A stretch of 64,000 nucleotides of DNA from Myxococcota bacterium (GTDB taxonomy: Bacteria > Myxococcota_A > UBA9160 > PR03): positions 1-64,000 of the forward strand of contig JBFIML010000001.1 in assembly GCA_041611735.1 (NCBI GenBank), in the 5' to 3' direction. This document shows positions 39,731-54,215 of the stretch, one piece after another (within the stretch, counting starts at the first letter, position 1; each line of letters begins with the position of its first letter). The notes below the pieces were generated by a model. That model was not told the DNA's origin, did not search any database, and saw only the letters and a program-made list of their open reading frames with translations. A program made the translations under genes and the position numbers.

Positions 39731-41125
39731 CTAGGCGCTGCCGCCGCGGATCGCCCGCACGAAGGCCTCGTAGAGCGCCTTGTGGATCGTCTTGCGGTCC
39801 GCGCGGCCGTACTTCTGGCGGAATGCCTTCAGCGGGATGATGCCCTTGGCCATGGTCCGGTGGCCGCCGCCCACCCCGAGGCCCTCCACCACCGCCCGCA
39901 CCACCTCCCCGGCCGCCCGCACGTAGCCGACGTTGCGCACCGAGAAGACGAGGTCCGCGTTCACGAAGCCCGCCGCGATGGCCCAGTCGGCGCCCTCCGC
40001 CTGGAGCGCCAGGTCCGCCACCTGGGGGATCACGTCCTCCCGCACGCGACCCAGCACCAGGATGTGGAGCGATTCCTGGACGGACGTTCGCGCCAGGGCG
40101 CGCCCCAGGGCCTTCAGGCCATCCACGGGCAGGGCCGGACGCTCGATCCGGCGCAGCAGGGCCGGGCTGTGGCTGGCGTGCAGGAACGCGAAGGCGTCGA
40201 TGTCCTGACGGCTGGTCTCGCGTCCCAGCAGCTGGGTGTCGCTCTTGATGGCGTACAGCAGCGCCGTGGCCAGGCGGGGTCCGATGTCCAGGTTCGCTGC
40301 CCGCAGGTATTCGGTCAGGATCGTGGCGGTGGCCCCGTAGGCCGGGCGGATGTCGCGCAGGACGGCATCGTAGCCGGTGCGCTCCGGGTGGTGATCGATC
40401 ACCACGTCCACCGAGCGGCAGCGGGCCGGCACGTTGTCCCCGAAGACGTTCGGCTGCACGTCCACCAGCGCGATGCCCTGGAAGCTGTCCAGCTCGATGG
40501 CGGCGAGCGTCTGCACGTCGATGCCCAGGGCCGCCACCATGGCCCGGTTCTCCGGGCGCTTCACCTCCCCGAACGAGACGAGGGGGGCCGTGGTGCGCTT
40601 GCGTCCCAACAGGGCGCGCAGGGCATAGCCACAGGCGATGCCGTCCGGATCCGGGTCCGGCTGCAGCAGGATCGCCACCTTGTCCCGCCCGCCGAGCAGC
40701 GTGCGGAGATCCACCACGCGGCGCAGGTTCGACAGATGGGAGAACTCCTGCTCCACGTCGTCGCGGATGAGGGAGCGCAGGGCTGCCCGTCGCAGGCACG
40801 GGTGCTCCGGCATCTCCGCCTGGGTGAGCTTGTCGGACAGGACCAGGATCGGTGCGTGGCTGGCGGCCTCGGCGATGGCCGAAACGGCGGCTCGCACGAA
40901 GGAGGCCTCCTCCGAAACCAGGGCGAAGCCGTCGCCCTCCTTCGGGTTGAGCTTGGCGATGGCCTCGGCGGCCAGGCCGCCCTGGAGAGCACGGAAGCCC
41001 GGGGGGCGCGCCCGCGATTCGTCCTCGCGGGGCACCCAGGTGAGCTCCTCGCTCTCTCCGGCGCCGATCCGGCCCCACAGCCGGGCGAGCTCCGCGCCGT
41101 CACACACGATGATCCGGCGTGCCAC
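39731..41125 (-). CDS. DHH/DHHA1 phosphoesterase with N-terminal RCK/TrkA-like extension
   Basis: DPDPDG, LVD, IDHH, SDT, SVR, GGGH motifs. Confidence 0.88.
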   Translation of the reverse strand: MARRIIVCDGAELARLWGRIGAGESEELTWVPREDESRARPPGFRALQGGLAAEAIAKLNPKEGDGFALVSEEASFVRAAVSAIAEAASHAPILVLSDKLTQAEMPEHPCLRRAALRSLIRDDVEQEFSHLSNLRRVVDLRTLLGGRDKVAILLQPDPDPDGIACGYALRALLGRKRTTAPLVSFGEVKRPENRAMVAALGIDVQTLAAIELDSFQGIALVDVQPNVFGDNVPARCRSVDVVIDHHPERTGYDAVLRDIRPAYGATATILTEYLRAANLDIGPRLATALLYAIKSDTQLLGRETSRQDIDAFAFLHASHSPALLRRIERPALPVDGLKALGRALARTSVQESLHILVLGRVREDVIPQVADLALQAEGADWAIAAGFVNADLVFSVRNVGYVRAAGEVVRAVVEGLGVGGGHRTMAKGIIPLKAFRQKYGRADRKTIHKALYEAFVRAIRGGSA

Positions 41126-41255
41126 CGTTCTCTCCGGTGCCCTGCCGTGCTGCGCAGGGCGCGGACCGGCCGATTCTAGCGCGAGCGCCCCAGCGACCGT
41201 CCGCACCGGGCGCTCCGTTTCTTCCCTGCGGGGACGAGGCGCTAGGCTCCGCCTC

Positions 41256-42113
41256 GTGCAGCGCCTCTTCGTGGGAGACGTCCAGGGCTGTGCCGACGAG
41301 CTCGGCGAGCTGCTGGTCCGGGCACGCAACGCCTTCGGCCCGGATTTCGAGGTCTGGTTCGTGGGCGATCTCGTGAATCGGGGACCCGCCAGCCTGCGCG
41401 TCCTCGAGCAGGTGCGCGAGCTCTCCGATGCCGGGCGGGCGCACACCGTGCTCGGCAACCACGAGGTGGCCCTCCTCCAGGCTGCCCTCGGACTCCGGCA
41501 GCCGGATGCGGACGATACCTACCGGGAGGTGCTCGAGGATCGGGATGCGGAAGCCTGGCTGGACTGGCTGCGGAGGCGACCCCTGGCGATCCGGGGGCGT
41601 CTCGGCGAGACCCCCTTCGTGCTGGTGCACGCGGCCGTGGCGCCCGAGTGGAGCCTCGCCGACGTGTTGGCACACACGCGCCGCGTGGAGGTCCGCCTCG
41701 GCGGCGCGCTCGCGGAGGCGCGCCGCCTGCTGGCCGCCGACCCCGCCCGGGATCCGGACCGCGACGTGCTGGCCCGGCTCATCCAGTGCCGGAGCGTGGA
41801 CGGGCGCGGCGTCTGGTCGGCGGACGCGCCGGCCTCGCCGCGCGATGCGTGGCACCGACGCTGGCGCGAGCGCCGCCACGACTACGGCGTCGTCTACGGC
41901 CACTGGGCGCTCCAGGGGCTGCACGTGGCCCCGGGCCTGCGGGGACTCGACACGGGCTGCGTTCACCACGGTCGGGGAAGGGACGGGTTCCTCACCGCCT
42001 GGCTGCCGGAGCCGCAAGCGCGCCACCCCTTCGAGGTCCCCGACGATCGCTTCTGGCAGGTGCGTGCCCACCGTCGCTACTGGCCCTTTCGCGCCCCCCA
42101 AGAACGTGCTTGA
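41256..42113 (+). CDS. apaH: ApaH-like bis(5'-nucleosyl)-tetraphosphatase / metallophosphoesterase
   Basis: GDVQGC, GDLVNRGP, LGNHE, VHA, GHWA, LDTGCV. Confidence 0.82.
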   Translation: MQRLFVGDVQGCADELGELLVRARNAFGPDFEVWFVGDLVNRGPASLRVLEQVRELSDAGRAHTVLGNHEVALLQAALGLRQPDADDTYREVLEDRDAEAWLDWLRRRPLAIRGRLGETPFVLVHAAVAPEWSLADVLAHTRRVEVRLGGALAEARRLLAADPARDPDRDVLARLIQCRSVDGRGVWSADAPASPRDAWHRRWRERRHDYGVVYGHWALQGLHVAPGLRGLDTGCVHHGRGRDGFLTAWLPEPQARHPFEVPDDRFWQVRAHRRYWPFRAPQERA

Positions 42114-42138
42114 ACTCGACCTCGCACCGATCTAGATT
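42110..42138 (+). promoter_or_regulatory. Sigma70-type promoter pointing into the non-coding region
   Basis: TTGAAC (42110-42115)-N17-TAGATT (42133-42138). Predicted +1 near G42145, the first base of a helix. Confidence 0.65.
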
Positions 42139-42144
42139 GACTTC

Positions 42145-42650
42145 GTACCCTGGACCCGGCGCAGGGGGAAGAGGTTCCGCCTCCGCCGACCGGACCGAGC
42201 GCCGGGTGACCCAGGTACGCGTCGGTGAGTCGGCGGGGGAGGGCGAGCCTGCGGGGTCGCGCCCGGAAGCCGGCCGATCAGCCGGAGTTCTGCGAGGCGC
42301 GAGGTCGCGGGCATCGGCGCGGGGGAACCTTCCCGGACCCGGGAGCTTCCACCCAAACGCCGGAGAGAGAGGGGAGTCTCCGACGACGCAGGCCGCGGCG
42401 AGGGCCCTGTCCGCGAACGCGCCAAACAGGATCGTTCGGGGGCGCACGGTCGCCCGGTCTTCGCAAGAGTTCCCCGAGGTTGCGCCGCGAGTCGGTGGCC
42501 GTTTGGATTCCGGTTCTCTCCGCGCAGCGGTTGTGCGGAGGGTCGGACGGTCGCTGCGACGCCGCTCCGGTACACGGCACGAGCCGGGCTTGCCCCGACG
42601 GAGGCCCGGGAAGGCCCCGCCGCCTCGACCCAGCCCGCCCGAGGGGTCTT
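42145..42650 (+). ncRNA. Candidate large (~500 nt) structured non-coding RNA, family unrecognised
   Basis: No credible ORF between convergent genes, an upstream promoter, and many nested and long-range helices whose G-U pairs favour the + strand. Confidence 0.6.
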
Positions 42651-42655
42651 GCCTC

Positions 42656-43594
42656 TCAGGGTGGCGCTCCGCGCTCTTCCAGGAGGCGACTCGCCTCCCG
42701 TCGCGCGCGAGCGTCCGCGTCCTGCGCGGCCACGTGCGCCACGGCCCCCGCCACAGGTTCGCTCCACACGCTCGGTGCGAGGCGAAGCGCCTGCCGTCGC
42801 AGCAGGCGGTCCGGGTGTTCGAGGGCTCGGAGCAACAGCTCGGCCAGGGCGGGATGGCTGGCACGGGCGGCTCCGGTCAGTACCGCGCGCAGCACGCCGG
42901 CCTCGGCAGCACCCTCTGCGTCCCGCAGCCCCGCCACCAGCGCGTCGAGGCCCTCGCGCCGGCTCGTCGCGAGCTGCGCCGAGACGGCGCGTGTCTCGGC
43001 GGGTCGGCCCGTGTCCAGAGCGTGTCGCGCCTGGAGCACGGCGGCTTCCGGGGAGAGGGGAGCCAGGGGCGCACGGCCTTCCAGCAGGGCGAGTCGCGCC
43101 TCGTCGCGCAGGCCGGCGTCGGGGCTGTCGAGCCAGGCGGAGTAGACGGGGACGAGACGCTCCGGAGACCCGGCGGCGGCGATCTCGCGCACGGCCGCCT
43201 CCCAGCGCTCCTCGGCGTCGGCATCGGACAGGACGAAGACCCCACGTGCCCCCTCCACCAGGACGTAGGGAGCGCGTGCTCCCCGCAGGAGCAGGAGGAC
43301 GCGCTGGCCGGGCTCCAGGGCCGGCGTCCGGGAAGGAGACCGCTTCACCGCGAAGCGCGCTTCCACGTCGCCGAGCACCGCGTGGCCCTCTCGCAGTCGA
43401 ATGCGTCCCGGCTCCACGGCGTCCACCGTGGCGAGGACGGCCCGGTCCGCCCGGGCGGCGCGTTCGTGCAGTGGCGCCGGGCCCGAGGGCAGGGGATGGA
43501 CGAACGCCTGGGCCCTCGCGGACGCGGCGCCGAGGGACGCTGCGAGCGCGACGGCGGCGGTCGACCACGAGCGCACGCGGCCTCGATGGCCCAT
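42656..43594 (-). CDS. Exported HEAT-repeat-like protein
   Basis: Signal peptide (AAVALAASLGAASARA) and helical repeats 'LDSPDAGLRDEA', 'LEHPDRLLRRQAL', 'DADARARREA'. Confidence 0.65.
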   Translation of the reverse strand: MGHRGRVRSWSTAAVALAASLGAASARAQAFVHPLPSGPAPLHERAARADRAVLATVDAVEPGRIRLREGHAVLGDVEARFAVKRSPSRTPALEPGQRVLLLLRGARAPYVLVEGARGVFVLSDADAEERWEAAVREIAAAGSPERLVPVYSAWLDSPDAGLRDEARLALLEGRAPLAPLSPEAAVLQARHALDTGRPAETRAVSAQLATSRREGLDALVAGLRDAEGAAEAGVLRAVLTGAARASHPALAELLLRALEHPDRLLRRQALRLAPSVWSEPVAGAVAHVAAQDADARARREASRLLEERGAPP

Positions 43595-43614
43595 CGTGTG
43601 CGAGTATACGGAGG

Positions 43615-45087
43615 ATGAGTGCCATGAGGTTGCGCCGGATCCGCACGGCGGCGCTCGGCCTGCTGGGGGCCTTCTCCACCTCGTGCGCCGGGCTGGGCTC
43701 GCTCGGCACGCTCACGCCCGAGCAGGAGGTGGCGGTCGGTGCCCGCGAGGCGGTCAGCGTCGAGCAGGAGATCGGCCTGGTCGCCGACCCGCAGCTGGTT
43801 GCGTACGTGGAGGCGATCGGCCGCCGCGTGGCCGCCCACTCGCCGCGGCGAGACATCACCTACCGCTTCCACGTGGCCGACATGGCCGAGCCGAATGCGT
43901 TTGCCCTCCCGGGCGGCTACATCTACGTGTCGCGGGGTCTTCTCGTGCTGGTGAACTCGGAGGCCGAGCTCGCCAACGTGCTCGGCCACGAAATTGCTCA
44001 CGTGACGGCGCGCCATCACGCCCAGCGCCACAGCCGCGCCACCAGCGTCGGTCTGCTCACGGTGCTGGGCACCGCCGCGGCCGCGATCCTGGGCGGCGCC
44101 GAAGCGGCGCAGCTGGCGGGCCAGATCGGACAGGTGGCGGGAGCCGGCCTGATCGCCTCCTATACGCGCGACCAGGAGCGCGAGTCGGACGAGCTTGGCC
44201 AGCAGATGGCCCTGCGGGCCGGCTACGACCCGGCGGCCATGGCGAACTTCCTGCGCACGCTGGAGGGCTGGGCGCGGCTCCAAGAGGGCGGCAACCGCAT
44301 GCCGAGCTTCCTGGACAGCCATCCCGCGACTCCCGAACGCATCGCGGCCACCGCGGCCCGGGCCGCCACCTTGACGCCGGGCGGAGCGCCGCGGGATCCG
44401 GACGGACGCGAGCGCGTGCTGGCGCACCTGGACGGGCTGGTGGTCGGCCCGAGCGTCGGCGAGGGCGTGCTGCGGGACGGCCTCTTCCTGCACCCGGACC
44501 TGAGCTTCGCGCTGCGTCCTCCCAGCGGCTGGCGCGTGCAGAACCAGAAGCGCGCCCTCGCCGCGGCGGCTCCGTCGGGCGATGCACTCTTCGTGCTCGA
44601 GCTCCAGGGCCCCGGCGACGACCCGCGTGCGGCCGCCGAGGCCTTCGCCCGCGCCAAGGGCGTCCGCTATGCGGAGTCCGGTCCGGCGCGGGGCACGCTG
44701 CTGCCCGGCTGGCGAGCGTTGGCGGTGGCGGAGTCCCAGCAGGGCCGCCTCGCGGTGGACCTCACCTGGATCGCCTGGCAGGGGCTCGTCTACCGGCTCT
44801 CCGGTGTGACCCCGGTCGCTGCCCAGGGACGCCATGCCGGGAGCTTCGAGACCGCCGCGCGCAGCTTCCGGCCCCTGTCGAGGGCCGAGCGGGCCGGCAT
44901 CCGGGAGCTGCGTCTGCGCCTGGTGACGGCCCGGGCCAACGAGTCCCTGGCTGCCCTGGCGGCGCGAGCGCAGGGCGTCTGGAAGCTCGAGGAGCTCGCG
45001 CTGGTGAACGGCCTCACGCCCGAAGCCCGCCTCGCAAGCGGCCTGCGCATCAAGGTGGCGAACGCCGAGCCATACGTCGGGCGCTAG
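43615..45087 (+). CDS. M48 family metalloprotease lipoprotein (BepA/YfgC-like)
   Basis: STSC lipobox, PNAFALPGG, HEIAH, ERESD, SHP. Confidence 0.92.
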   Translation: MSAMRLRRIRTAALGLLGAFSTSCAGLGSLGTLTPEQEVAVGAREAVSVEQEIGLVADPQLVAYVEAIGRRVAAHSPRRDITYRFHVADMAEPNAFALPGGYIYVSRGLLVLVNSEAELANVLGHEIAHVTARHHAQRHSRATSVGLLTVLGTAAAAILGGAEAAQLAGQIGQVAGAGLIASYTRDQERESDELGQQMALRAGYDPAAMANFLRTLEGWARLQEGGNRMPSFLDSHPATPERIAATAARAATLTPGGAPRDPDGRERVLAHLDGLVVGPSVGEGVLRDGLFLHPDLSFALRPPSGWRVQNQKRALAAAAPSGDALFVLELQGPGDDPRAAAEAFARAKGVRYAESGPARGTLLPGWRALAVAESQQGRLAVDLTWIAWQGLVYRLSGVTPVAAQGRHAGSFETAARSFRPLSRAERAGIRELRLRLVTARANESLAALAARAQGVWKLEELALVNGLTPEARLASGLRIKVANAEPYVGR

Positions 45088-45101
45088 CCGGCGTCGCGCG
45101 C

Positions 45102-46265
45102 GTGGGCGACGCGTCCGTGCTCGAGGTTCGCATCGACTCGCTGGCCGGCGACGGCGATGGGGTGGCCCGCGACGCCTCGGGACGCGTGATCTTCGTGCCC
45201 TTCACGGCCCCCGGGGACCGGGTCCGGGTGCGGGTCGTGGAGGCGCGACGGCGCTTCGCCCGCGCCCGGGTCGAGACGCTGCTCGAGCCGGGCCCCTCGC
45301 GCACGTCGCCGCACTGTCCCGTGTTCGGGGAGTGCGGCGGCTGCACGTGGCAGCACGTGGACTATGCGACCCAGGTGGAGGCCAAGCGGCGCATCCTGGA
45401 GGAGGCCCTGCAGCGGGTGGGCGGGATCCGGCCGCCCGGCGGGATCGGCATGGTGGCCTCGCCGCAGCCCTACGCCTACCGCGCCCGGGCCCGGGTGCGG
45501 GTGGAGGGCGGACACGTGGGCTACCGGCGCCGGCGCAGCCACGCCCTCTGCCCGGTGCGGGGCTGTCCCCTGCTGCTGCCCGCCCTGGACGCGTGTCTGG
45601 CCCGCCTGGCGAGCCATCCTCCCGCCCGGGAGGGGGAGTGGGAGCTCGCCGCCGGTGACGATGGGAGCGTGCGGGCCGCGCCGCTGCCGTCGCCCCCGGG
45701 GCCGTCGGTGGAGCTCCGCGTCCGGGGAGAGACCCTGCAGGTCTCGCCCGGGGTCTTCGCCCAGGCGAACGGGTTGTTGCGCGAGACCCTGGTCGAGGCC
45801 GTGTGTGAGGCGGCGGGGCGCGGGGAGACCCTGCTCGAGCTGCATGCGGGTGCCGGCTTCTTCACGCTGTCTCTCGCACGACACTGGCGCCGTCTGGTGG
45901 CGGTCGAGGCGGACTCCGCGGCGGTCCGCGACCTGCGGCGCAACCTGGCCGCCGCAGGTCTCGACCACGTGGAGGTGCGGGCGCGGCCGGTGGAGACGGT
46001 GCTCGGCGGGCCGCCGCCAAGCCGTCTGGCACCCGAGGTCGTGGTGCTCGATCCGCCCCGCACCGGCCTGCCGCCTGGCGCGGCGCGGGCCCTGGCCAAC
46101 CTCGGGGCGAGCCGCGTGGTCTACGTTTCCTGCGATCCTGCCACCCTGGCTCGCGACCTGGCAGTCCTCGGGGCGGGGGGTCTCGCGGTGCGGCGGGTGC
46201 AGGGCTTCGACCTGTTTCCCCAGACGCCCCACGTGGAGACGCTCGCCGTCCTGGAGAGATCCTAG
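45102..46265 (+). CDS. rlmD: TRAM-domain RNA m5U methyltransferase (RlmD/TrmA family)
   Basis: TRAM domain, C...CGGC Fe-S motif, FAQAN, LDPPRTG, YVSCDP, DLFPQTPHVE. Confidence 0.85.
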   Translation: MGDASVLEVRIDSLAGDGDGVARDASGRVIFVPFTAPGDRVRVRVVEARRRFARARVETLLEPGPSRTSPHCPVFGECGGCTWQHVDYATQVEAKRRILEEALQRVGGIRPPGGIGMVASPQPYAYRARARVRVEGGHVGYRRRRSHALCPVRGCPLLLPALDACLARLASHPPAREGEWELAAGDDGSVRAAPLPSPPGPSVELRVRGETLQVSPGVFAQANGLLRETLVEAVCEAAGRGETLLELHAGAGFFTLSLARHWRRLVAVEADSAAVRDLRRNLAAAGLDHVEVRARPVETVLGGPPPSRLAPEVVVLDPPRTGLPPGAARALANLGASRVVYVSCDPATLARDLAVLGAGGLAVRRVQGFDLFPQTPHVETLAVLERS

Positions 46266-51945: not shown

Positions 51946-53084
51946 GCGGAGCGGATCTCGGTGAGGACGGTGCCGAGCGAGCCCACCTCGCCGTGGCGCA
52001 GGGACTCGACCGCCGGAAGCCCCGCCACGATCCGCTCCAGGCGGGCCGCCATCGAGGCCTCGATCCCGCGGAAGCGCAGGGCCAGCCCCCGATCGCCTTC
52101 GTCGCGGATCACTTCGGCGTCGATCAGGAAGGGCTCCTCCCGCGCCGAGCCGTAGATCGCGAGCTGCAGGCGTGCGCCGAGCCGCAGCTCCGGGTGGGGA
52201 TCGATCAGCATGCCACCCGCGGAGAGGTCGCGGCCGAGGAGCACGCGGCGCGCGTCACCGGCGAGGGCCACCACTTCGCGCTCGAAGCGCGCCCGGGCAT
52301 GACGTCGCCGCTCGGGGCCGGATTCCTCCTTGCGCTCGCTCTTGCGGTTGGCGCCGGGCCGGCTCGTGGCCGAGGCGGCCTCGATCACCGCGGGTCCTTC
52401 CGAGCGCTCGCGCAGGATCTCGCTCACCCGGGCGCGAGTGGCCTCGTCGAGGCGGCCGAAGCTCACCGCGATCTGCATCTGCCGGCGGTTCTCCTCGGGG
52501 CCGGCCTCCGGGGTCGAACGCACCACCTGGCCGCGCAGGTTGAAACCGCGGCCGCCGGTCAGCTCCGCGGGAAGCTGGATGGCCAGCGAGGTCCCGGCGT
52601 CGTAGGCGTGCTCCGCCACCAGGCTGCACCCGTGCAGGGAGAGGTCCGCCAGCACCGCGCTGCGGCGCCGGAAGCGCGTCCGCACGGTCACCGGATAGCC
52701 GATCGTGGTGCGTTTTTCGCCGCGTTGGTCGTCACCCTGGAAGAGCGCGCGTGTGACCAGGAGACGCAGGGCCACCGGGTGGACGGGCCGGCGCACCAGG
52801 AAGTCGAAGCCGATGCGTCGCAGCATGGCCCGCAGGGTCTGGGAGTCCTCGTCCACCACGGCAATCTTGACCGGGCGGCTCTGGCCGTTGCCGCGCAGCG
52901 GCCATTCGCGGGCCAGCAGCGCCCGCCGCGAGTTGGTCACGAAGAGGTCCCGGGGCGGCTGGACCCGCGCCGGCACGGCGGCCCCTCGCAGGTGGGCGAA
53001 GTCGATGCCGAGCCCGGTCAGGATGTCGCGGACGTCGTCGAGCTCGCCATCGTCGACCAGCAGAACCGGAAAATCGGACCCCAT
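51942..53084 (-). CDS. REC-like plus tandem PilZ domain protein (c-di-GMP effector)
   Basis: VLLVDD; RGEKR/DLSLHG and RRHAR/DLSAGG. Confidence 0.8.
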   Translation of the reverse strand: MGSDFPVLLVDDGELDDVRDILTGLGIDFAHLRGAAVPARVQPPRDLFVTNSRRALLAREWPLRGNGQSRPVKIAVVDEDSQTLRAMLRRIGFDFLVRRPVHPVALRLLVTRALFQGDDQRGEKRTTIGYPVTVRTRFRRRSAVLADLSLHGCSLVAEHAYDAGTSLAIQLPAELTGGRGFNLRGQVVRSTPEAGPEENRRQMQIAVSFGRLDEATRARVSEILRERSEGPAVIEAASATSRPGANRKSERKEESGPERRRHARARFEREVVALAGDARRVLLGRDLSAGGMLIDPHPELRLGARLQLAIYGSAREEPFLIDAEVIRDEGDRGLALRFRGIEASMAARLERIVAGLPAVESLRHGEVGSLGTVLTEIRSA

Positions 53085-53237
53085 GCAGTCCCCGTGGGCC
53101 GGGTCAACGGGCGCCGGCCCCCCAGCCTCAGTCGGCCGAACCCAGCCGGAGCTGAAGGGCAGGCGTGCCAATCCCGGGTCGCCGCCGGCGGTCTCGCCCC
53201 GACGCAGGTTTTCCTTCTAGTTTCGGGAACTTGATGC

Positions 53238-54215
53238 TTACGGGGGGGTGCGACGCCGGCCCGGGCCCCCAGGTCCGAAAGGGCGCCGCGGGTCCCTTCG
53301 AGGCGCTTGCTCCCGGTCCCGAGCCGACCCCTTCTTCGAACCCCGAGGTGGATCGGCGTCCTCCGGGCCCGGCGGCTCCGGGGCCGGCGGTCGCTTGGGG
53401 CCCCGGTCCCGGGGCGCGCCCGCCCCCGGCCCACCGCCCGCGGCGGGAGGCGATCCGACCCGTGCGCGCGGCGCCGCCCGCCGCGCCACGACGAGTCCGA
53501 GGGCGCCGAGCCCCGTCCCGACGGCCAGCGTGGCAGCGGTCGAGGCCAGAGGCGCCACGTCGAGCGTGGCCTCCAGGACCGCGACCAGGTTGTTTGCCAC
53601 GTGGCATGCCACCGCGGCGCGGATCCCCCCCGACCACAGCGTGACCGCGCCCAGATAGAGCCCGAGTACCACGGCCGCAAAGGCGTGCACGAGGTCGCCG
53701 TGCAGGGCGCCGAAGGCGATTGCCGAGAGCGAGACGGCGGCCAGGCCGCCGAGCCGAGGCTCGAGTCCTCGTTGCAGGAAGCCGCGGAAGAACAGCTCCT
53801 CGCCAATGCCGGGCGCGACGCCCAGCCCGAGGAGCACGCCGAGCAACGCCCGCCCTCCGACGTGTGTCAGTCGGGCGTCGAAGTCGGCGAGGGCGCCGCC
53901 CTCGCGCAGCTCGAGGAGCCGCAGCGCACTCTCGGCGGCGTGGCTCACGGCCACGAAGCCCAGCGCCACCAGCAGCCCCGGGCCCGCGGCGAGATGCCCG
54001 GGCCGGAGCCCCAGGCGCTCGCTCAGGGGCGCCCGGGCGAGTGCGGCCCCGGCGCCGGCGGCGAGGCCCAGCACGATCGAACTCGCGGCGGCCTGGAGGG
54101 CCAGGGCGCCGGCTCCCGACGGGTGAAGCCAGCGCAGCAGGGTCTGTGCCCCGGCGATGACGGCGAGCGCAGCCGCTGCGAGGAGCACGGCCAACTGGAT
54201 GCGTCGCTCCTGCAT
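53238..54215 (-). CDS. CPBP (CAAX protease/Abi) intramembrane metalloprotease
   Basis: EELFFRG, FGALH, HVANN, Pro-rich tail. Confidence 0.88.
   Translation of the reverse strand: MQERRIQLAVLLAAAALAVIAGAQTLLRWLHPSGAGALALQAAASSIVLGLAAGAGAALARAPLSERLGLRPGHLAAGPGLLVALGFVAVSHAAESALRLLELREGGALADFDARLTHVGGRALLGVLLGLGVAPGIGEELFFRGFLQRGLEPRLGGLAAVSLSAIAFGALHGDLVHAFAAVVLGLYLGAVTLWSGGIRAAVACHVANNLVAVLEATLDVAPLASTAATLAVGTGLGALGLVVARRAAPRARVGSPPAAGGGPGAGAPRDRGPKRPPAPEPPGPEDADPPRGSKKGSARDREQAPRRDPRRPFGPGGPGRRRTPP

Follow-up and report, generated by a model that had tools for sequence, protein, structure and literature searches.

Assembly GCA_041611735.1 of a Myxococcota bacterium (GTDB lineage Myxococcota_A; UBA9160; PR03) supplied the window analyzed here, the first 64,000 nt of contig JBFIML010000001.1. 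Its largest gene-free gap lies between two convergent genes, and our analyses indicate with good confidence that it contains a gene, transcribed on its own, whose product is a stable, trans-acting structured RNA of ∼485 nt, of a class absent from Rfam. The RNA gene is placed on the plus strand at 42145 to 42630 by alignments of homologs and by matches to covariance models of its 5′ domain (R1, 42140 to 42247) and its 3′ domain (R2, 42556 to 42630). A preliminary description, made from the letters of the window, had proposed here an undescribed, multidomain, plus-strand RNA of ∼500 nt with its own promoter and no role as a leader, and this proposal stood up to all the tests named with it except that of folding energy.

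The gap spans 42114 to 42655 (542 nt) in a window of 73.8% G+C. It is bounded by the stop codon of an ApaH-like gene on the plus strand (TGA, 42111 to 42113) and by that of the convergent gene on the minus strand (42656 to 42658). Codon-position GC analysis revealed periodicity on both sides of the gap and none within it, and the longest stretch of the window lacking codon periodicity (42121 to 42706) covers the gap, in agreement with the size and setting first described. The same analysis, applied to the gap as a check for a conserved open reading frame (ORF), gave no such signal.

Covariation Supports a Pseudoknotted Structure

Base pairs were counted on MAFFT alignments built from sequence alone, comprising 47 sequences for the 5′ domain and 55 at full length. 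In the 5′ domain, 87.1% of the cells of 32 pairs (helices P1 and P2 and the pseudoknot PK1) were paired, compared to 35 to 51% in slid controls; 30 of these pairs were altered on both sides, and none of 500 shuffles reached the observed values. At full length, the 66 pairs of nine helices were paired in 86.3% of cells (43 to 49% when slid), with 42 pairs altered on both sides, and 0 of 500 shuffles equaled the data on all five measures. The covariation in relatives that the preliminary description had set as a check was thus found. G-U pairs were frequent in the covarying helices on the plus strand, as that description had noted, which fixes the strand of the RNA.

The 5′ hairpin proposed at 42145-42162/42199-42218 is present and covaries. 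It comprises P1 (42145-42153 with 42211-42218), which is 91.8% paired with six of six pairs altered on both sides, and P2 (42154-42162 with 42199-42207), in which eight of nine pairs are altered on both sides and which closes a 36-nt loop. Residues 42176 to 42190 of this loop pair with the segment GUCGGCGGGGGAGGG at 42229 to 42243 to form PK1, a helix of 14 bp that is 94.9% paired and compensatory in 13 of its 14 pairs. RNAalifold by itself chose this same 14-bp pairing of loop and downstream segment. An alignment-free test gave the same result: native strands paired at −21.9 kcal/mol and crossed strands at −16.8 kcal/mol, and 0 of 1,000 permutations did as well. The same downstream segment had been assigned to a long-range helix closing ∼400 nt (42227-42238/42615-42626). 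This helix can form 11 of 12 pairs in the window, but in the alignment it is 67.5% paired with three columns mostly mismatched, and in the alignment-free test native and crossed strands were alike (−13.6 vs. −13.5 kcal/mol, 343 of 1,000 permutations as good). Its 5′ strand instead pairs with 42176 to 42190, in PK1.

A contact between the 5′ region and the 3′ end, as that closing helix implied, probably persists in another form. Residues 42170 to 42175 of the hairpin loop (consensus CGAGGU, AGAGGU in the window) can pair with GCCUCG at 42622 to 42627, and we regard this loop-to-3′-end pairing, PK2, as a probable second pseudoknot. PK2 is 97.0% paired and compensatory in only two sequences (U-A and G-C); its column pair 54/841 reads UG in 34 sequences, UA in 13 and CG in 6. 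RNAalifold proposed in its place a local helix, GAGG/CCUC, within the 3′ domain, which lacks covariation and is broken where CCUCG changes in one sequence. PK2 is the better fit of the two, on thin support of its own.

Between the two domains, the core hairpin (42323 to 42350) has an outer stem GGAAGY/GCUUCC, an inner stem UCCCG/CGGGA and a GACC loop. It is near-invariant (95.4% paired), with one-sided, wobble-compatible changes only; its inner stem, correctly foreseen as TCCCG 42331/CGGGA 42340, is 97% paired in the other 54 sequences. Two long-range helices follow. LR-b joins CCGGAG (42360 to 42365) to CUCCGG (42565 to 42570) and is 93.3% paired, with four of six pairs altered on both sides (for example, CGAAG/CUUCG). 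P7 (42368-42373 with 42471-42476) encloses the variable region V2 and is followed on its 3′ strand by a conserved GA. It is only 64.5% paired in the alignment owing to register shifts, and alignment-free tests supported it (native −12.7 vs. cross −9.4 kcal/mol; 0 of 500 and 0 of 1,000 permutations). A CAGGCGC block 5′ of the core hairpin also paired with the segment after that hairpin better than crossed strands did (−4.65 vs. −4.03 kcal/mol, 0 of 1,000), a pairing that overlaps LR-b.

Toward the 3′ end, P9 (CGGC-ACGA-GCCG, 42575 to 42586) is a putative small hairpin recognized by eye and in the window fold, and homologs have different stems there (for example, CUCG-GAAA-CGAG). The adjoining block UGCCCCGACGGAGGCC (42590 to 42606) is near-invariant, consisting of invariant columns for which no covarying partner was identified. 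P10 (CGGG-AAGGC-CCCG, 42607 to 42619) is 94.5% paired, and one sequence carries a compensatory CAGG/CCUG.

Three variable regions interrupt this core. V1 (42244 to 42312) forms a long hairpin in a constrained fold of the window only, its internal pairs lacking comparative support, and is absent from one clade (loci L003, L005, L006, L008, L010, L011, L026, L027 and L038; alignment A2, columns ∼146 to 290), so the core tolerates the loss of a hairpin of 50 to 90 nt. V2 (42377 to 42468) varies in length and sequence, and V3 (42477 to 42562) cannot be aligned across homologs; the long hairpin first proposed at 42491-42560 does appear in the constrained window fold. The alignments thus display a conserved core with variable peripheral insertions, as in structural or catalytic RNAs. 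One helix of the constrained fold, 42219-42226/42313-42320, was rejected (native −3.7 vs. cross −4.0 kcal/mol, 847 of 1,000 permutations as good).

In its details, therefore, the fold first drawn held in part: the 5′ hairpin, the TCCCG/CGGGA stem and part of CCGGGC 42584/GCCCGG 42604 stood, and about half of the listed helices proved unconserved. In the last of these, the inner four pairs are 64 to 89% paired each, with AU, UA and GU variants, and the outer pairs compete with the hairpin at 42607-42619. GCCTGCG 42247/CGCAGGC 42387 and GGAAGC 42265/GCTTCC 42345 lie in an insertion missing from many copies and cross covarying helices, and CGGAGA 42361/TCTCCG 42377 is paired in 32% of the other sequences. 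Both pseudoknots proposed earlier (AGGTTCC 42172/GGAACCT 42324 and CCAAACG 42353/CGTTTGG 42500) are unconserved or cross supported helices.

A Conserved Promoter Precedes the RNA

The predicted promoter consists of a −35 box TTGAAC (42110 to 42115), which overlaps the stop codon of the ApaH-like gene, and a −10 box TAGATT (42133 to 42138) separated from it by 17 nt. The sequence is present as first described, and an equivalent (TTGnnn-N16-18-TAnnnT) stands just upstream of the RNA in 54 of 55 distinct copies. It predicts a start near G42145, where P1 begins, as first proposed; in 29 of these 54 copies, the −10 box ends 6 nt before P1. Comparison of homologs thus assigns the RNA its own promoter and the plus strand. 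A generic promoter and terminator scan had returned no promoter and, within the RNA, one weak terminator-like site; only the comparison of homologs revealed the promoter. In many copies (among loci L002 to L080), an A/T-rich tract such as GAATTTCG or GAAAATC lies 20 to 45 nt upstream of the −35 box, in genomes of 70 to 74% GC. This tract resembles an UP element and suggests strong transcription.

We set the 5′ end of the RNA by the promoter and its 3′ end by the limit of conservation, which falls at 42628. RNAs extracted from homologous loci were 343 to 591 nt long. At locus L028, a GC-rich hairpin with a T-run follows the conserved CCUCGG by ∼15 to 45 nt, and the window has a weak hairpin at this position; the primary transcript may thus run some tens of nucleotides beyond the conserved end.

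The RNA Matches No Rfam Family

Searches of the whole window with the 4,227 covariance models of Rfam 15 (cmscan) gave no match at gathering thresholds. At E values up to 10, positions 41900 to 42900 gave only five subthreshold chance matches of 14 to 18 bits, to four microRNA models and one internal ribosome entry site, and 16 homologous loci gave three unrelated matches, none within the RNA. The Rfam comparison that the preliminary description had called for therefore assigned no family to the gap or to these homologs.

That description had also seen no signature of RNase P, transfer-messenger RNA (tmRNA), signal recognition particle (SRP) RNA, 6S RNA or a cobalamin riboswitch, and none of the corresponding models matched the gap. 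Four of these RNAs were located elsewhere in the genome, each above its gathering score: RNase P RNA (RF00010, contig C26, 225.8 bits), tmRNA (RF00023, contig C78, 135.6 bits), small SRP RNA (RF00169, contig C2, 51.8 bits) and 6S RNA (RF00013, contig C13, 53 bits). ARAGORN identified no tRNA or tmRNA gene in the window, nor a tRNA-like domain or tag reading frame. The closing duplex between 5′ and 3′ ends that marks 6S RNA is absent here, as the 5′ end forms a local hairpin. For the cobalamin riboswitch, there was no match at E values up to 10 in the gap or in the 16 homologs, and the next gene is convergent. A full-text literature search, its scope being the article text available to it and not the supplementary candidate lists of computational screens, yielded no description of the RNA, and a term search within one 2026 preprint found no mention of it. 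The RNA is thus an apparently undescribed class and not a variant of a known one.

The RNA Is Confined to One Order

In BLASTN searches, the gap matched 28 of 40 relatives, mostly as two colinear blocks (window 42319 to 42371 and 42592 to 42627) spaced 220 to 391 nt apart. An exact 22-mer from the core hairpin block was then scanned over 185,579 species, one genome each. It returned 42 loci, all in metagenome-assembled genomes (MAGs), for which the submitter labels included Myxococcota, Myxococcales or Deltaproteobacteria (33), Spirochaetales (6), Opitutales (1) and Gemmatimonadota (1). The 5′ block and the core block follow each other in order at every one of the 42 loci, with the 3′ block as well at 41; the remaining one is broken off at the end of its locus. 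Eight MAGs bear the labels Spirochaetales, Opitutales or Gemmatimonadota (L039, L045, L057, L060, L064, L066, L077 and L078), and these probably reflect labeling or binning noise and not a wider distribution.

Searches with the 5′ model R1 drew the boundary closely. In a phylum-wide sample, 10 of 151 genomes matched, namely the window's own and 9 of 23 other members of its order, compared to 0 of 4 in the rest of the class and 0 of 123 in the rest of the phylum. Within the order, 82 of 151 genomes matched, or 81 of 150 when the window's genome is set aside, so the conservation in relatives looked for at the outset was evident. By family, again without the window's genome, the counts were 14/16 (f1), 29/35 (f8), 6/6 (f11), 8/14 (f4), 12/33 (f12), 8/35 (f10) and 0/3 (f9). 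The 3′ model R2 matched 56 of 151 genomes in a class sample (55 of 150 others), every one inside the order, and 0 of 32 genomes of f13, the other sampled family, which belongs to the sister order. No match to the RNA was found in plasmid and phage collections.

The RNA is single-copy in nearly all genomes, and for R1 within the order in all but two. Matches on two different contigs occurred in G030 and G220 with R1 and in G179, G196 and G232 with R2; contig duplication, mixed bins or genuine second copies may account for them. We read the RNA as vertically inherited within one uncultured order of Myxococcota, and hold this jointly with the reading as a whole, at the good confidence expressed above.

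Homologs Appear in Environmental RNA Libraries

Two metatranscriptome runs from one study contained 34% and 3% of the sampled words, respectively. Contigs over 41500 to 43300 matched almost only the core and 3′ blocks, with other sequence between them and depths of up to 435 to 672; the differing sequence between the blocks identifies them as homologs from related organisms. One contig of 473 nt has both blocks at the expected spacing, and another of 251 nt matches window 42316 to 42566 with two differences. Outside the conserved blocks, there was little or no contig cover, and this was not used as evidence. The expectation of a plus-strand transcript starting near 42145 was thus borne out as far as contigs with the conserved blocks exist, and these contigs are silent on strand and start. 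We take the RNA libraries as supportive, not decisive, for expression.

Proposed Architecture and Function

The supported pairs show how the RNA is organized. The large loop of the 5′ hairpin pairs with the segment just downstream through the 14 bp of PK1, and LR-b, P7 and the near-invariant hairpin form a central junction that carries this hairpin and the GCCCCGWCGGAGG block. The loop of the 5′ hairpin probably also binds the last conserved bases through PK2, which would draw the two ends of the RNA together in a compact fold. Such a PK1/PK2 clamp would shield both termini and hold the central junction in a set geometry. Contact or active sites may lie in the near-invariant unpaired blocks, the GACC-loop hairpin and GCCCCGWCGGAGG.

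Our best guess, which we hold at slightly short of even chances, is that the RNA serves as the core or scaffold of a ribonucleoprotein and not as a regulator of a neighboring gene. A ribozyme, again without a regulatory role toward a neighbor, comes next and is considerably less probable. More speculative still is a bolder proposal, in which the RNA would represent a new catalytic class or the core of a new, order-specific ribonucleoprotein machine, a double pseudoknot keeping the GACC hairpin and GCCCCGWCGGAGG in place as an active or binding site. Its frequent location next to genes for an ApaH-like Np4N hydrolase and a DHH/DHHA1 phosphoesterase could point to a role in nucleotide-cap or short-RNA metabolism.

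Several observations weigh against this interpretation of the gap as an independent, trans-acting RNA gene. Any function is wholly inferred, as are the ends of the transcript, and no partner protein was identified among the neighbors, the HEAT-like protein showing no co-occurrence with the RNA. Many genomes of the order gave no match (see f10, f12 and f9 above); with the RNA not found in so many members, the order as a whole does not depend on it. Compensatory change is scarce or lacking in PK2 and the core hairpin, both of them near-invariant. Because the aligned sequences share ancestry, the shuffles exaggerate significance, and the slid controls and permutation tests are fairer. Assembled contigs give neither strand, ends nor true abundance, and an RNA library may include DNA carry-over. 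Finally, the folding energy of the gap does not differ from that of dinucleotide shuffles (z −0.13 on the plus strand and +0.46 on the minus strand). Folding no better than shuffles was an outcome that the preliminary description had itself listed as refuting its proposal, and this is the outcome obtained. At ∼74% GC, however, the folding z-score is uninformative and is outweighed by the comparative evidence; a value near zero does not exclude a genuine structured RNA in a high-GC genome.

Alternative Explanations

The alternative that survives best, although we judge it improbable, is a cis element of a neighboring gene: a long 3′ untranslated region (UTR) of the ApaH-like mRNA, its terminator or a stability element, or an antisense or leader RNA of a flanking gene. 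At 31 of 54 homologous loci, the gene immediately upstream in the same orientation is the ApaH-like one; in the window the −35 box overlaps its stop codon, and the generic scan revealed no clear intrinsic terminator between it and the RNA. However, the promoter position is kept in 54 of 55 copies, including 23 loci where no ApaH-like gene lies upstream, and the downstream genes vary among loci, that of the window being convergent. The size of the RNA and its two pseudoknots are far beyond known 3′ UTR elements, and the metatranscriptome contigs of 222 to 473 nt reached depths far above those of the flanks, contig depth being a poor measure.

About as improbable as a cis element, and if anything slightly more so, is a divergent member of a known family (RNase P, tmRNA, 6S, SRP, OLE, ROOL, GOLLD, HEARO or cobalamin riboswitch). 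Covariance models can miss very divergent lineages, and the segment GCCGGAGACCG may bear a loose likeness to the B12 box of cobalamin riboswitches. Against this stand the Rfam searches, which at E values up to 10 gave no match in the gap and none within the 16 homologs, the RNase P, tmRNA, SRP and 6S RNAs found elsewhere in the genome, the absence of a tmRNA from the ARAGORN results for the window, and the lack of a downstream gene to regulate.

A guide or scaffold RNA of a mobile or defense system (an omega-RNA-like or retron-like RNA, or a transposon end) is a reading with precedent, HEARO and similar large structured RNAs having proved to be of that sort. We consider this very unlikely. The RNA is nearly always single-copy, is stably syntenic with housekeeping-type genes, is confined to one order and lacks plasmid and phage matches, and none of the clustered neighbors was recognized as a nuclease, transposase or reverse transcriptase. 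Least likely of all is conservation at the level of DNA or protein (protein-binding sites or small ORFs) without RNA structure, for although pairing can look more extensive at high GC and the z-score of folding is ∼0, the compensatory changes in 42 of 66 pairs include long-range ones, the paired fraction falls to 43 to 49% in slid controls, indels in the variable regions are not multiples of three, the gap lacks codon periodicity, and G-U pairs occur on one strand only.

Comparison with Known Large RNAs

Few large, intricately folded bacterial RNAs are known: RNase P, tmRNA, OLE, GOLLD, ROOL, HEARO and raiA. In descriptive terms, which do not imply homology, the RNA reported here has the marks of a large ornate bacterial noncoding RNA: it exceeds 300 nt, contains several covarying helices and at least one pseudoknot (PK1, with PK2 probable), and carries highly conserved unpaired nucleotides in its invariant blocks.

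It resembles OLE RNA in its length of hundreds of nucleotides, its many conserved helices, its highly conserved unpaired nucleotides and its restriction to one lineage. OLE itself is described as a large RNA of one lineage, the Bacillota, whose biochemical function is unknown and which is proposed to act in a ribonucleoprotein (PMC11332333, PMC12054373, PMC12265935). Our RNA differs in matching no Rfam model, in occurring in MAGs of Myxococcota, and in having its own promoter between unrelated genes; no oap-like partner genes are apparent nearby, as judged without a search by name.

ROOL and GOLLD are often associated with phages or prophages. A cryo-EM study reports RNA-only multimeric assemblies for them (PMC12286853). 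The present RNA shares their size class, an ornate pseudoknotted fold and a function that is unknown, and differs in being single-copy, syntenic and without phage, plasmid or model matches. With RNase P RNA and tmRNA the likeness is an architectural analogy only: a pseudoknotted core, lineage-specific insertions, 5′ and 3′ regions joined by pairing, an own promoter and apparent abundance. Both of those RNAs are encoded elsewhere in the genome, their models miss the gap, and the RNA described here is distributed over one order and is not universal.

The raiA motif, of ∼200 nt, occurs in Bacillota and Actinomycetota. It is reported as a structured noncoding RNA that is widespread in its phyla and has its own promoter and a role that has only begun to emerge (PMC10861870, PMC11706538). 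The likeness is that of a structured noncoding RNA with its own promoter; the present RNA matches no raiA model and is more than twice as large.

Earlier large RNAs each opened new biology. This one is known only from uncultured Myxococcota, a range that culture-centered screens may have missed. The alignment and models provide material for work on structure, ribozyme activity and partners and for annotation in hundreds of MAGs, and the short forms lacking V1 would suit structural work.

Neighboring Genes and Other Observations

The upstream gene (41229 to 42113, plus strand, start approximate) encodes an ApaH-like metallophosphoesterase (Pfam Metallophos, E value 8e-13) that scored 161 and 110 bits with NCBIfam ApaH models, both below cut-off. 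The ORF at 40638 to 42113, read as a single gene, is a false fusion typical of high-GC DNA, as judged by codon-position GC and Pfam. A conserved "N-terminal domain" of this ORF, suggested by tblastn over residues 1 to 163, proved to be an antisense reading of a DHH/DHHA1 phosphoesterase gene. The latter, delimited by Pfam and codon-position GC, lies on the minus strand from 39731 to ∼41150 and has an N-terminal extension of ∼200 aa without a Pfam match. In addition to the 31 loci with an upstream ApaH-like gene, 9 further loci have the DHH/DHHA1 gene as the immediate divergent neighbor, and in 14 of the 54 neither gene was seen within the fetched flank.

The convergent downstream gene (42656 to 43594, minus strand) has no Pfam or NCBIfam match, and one homolog shows a weak match to HEAT_2. 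Downstream genes differ among loci and include HEAT-like genes (12 to 13 of 54) and genes for an M48 peptidase, an aldehyde ferredoxin oxidoreductase (AFOR) and MoeA. In family f8, the HEAT-like protein is present in 4 of 35 genomes and the RNA in 29 of 35, and in genus g30 the protein is present in 7 of 9 and the RNA in 0 of 9. We therefore rejected the HEAT-like neighbor as an obligate partner, its distribution across the order being unlike that of the RNA. Of the link to neighboring hydrolases or the HEAT-like protein raised in the preliminary description, what was observed is that the ApaH-like gene is frequently syntenic; the HEAT-like protein and the RNA are distributed differently.

The second-longest stretch of the window without codon periodicity, 53071 to 53551, has no Rfam match; only its first ∼85 nt (53000 to 53087, probably a gene end) are kept in relatives, the rest giving scattered short matches. 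About 2.5 kb downstream of the RNA, a plus-strand ORF at 43401 to 46265 encodes TRAM and tRNA/rRNA (uracil-5) methyltransferase domains (RlmD/TrmA-like) at residues 572 to 953, its N-terminal 570 aa probably being an artifactual extension.

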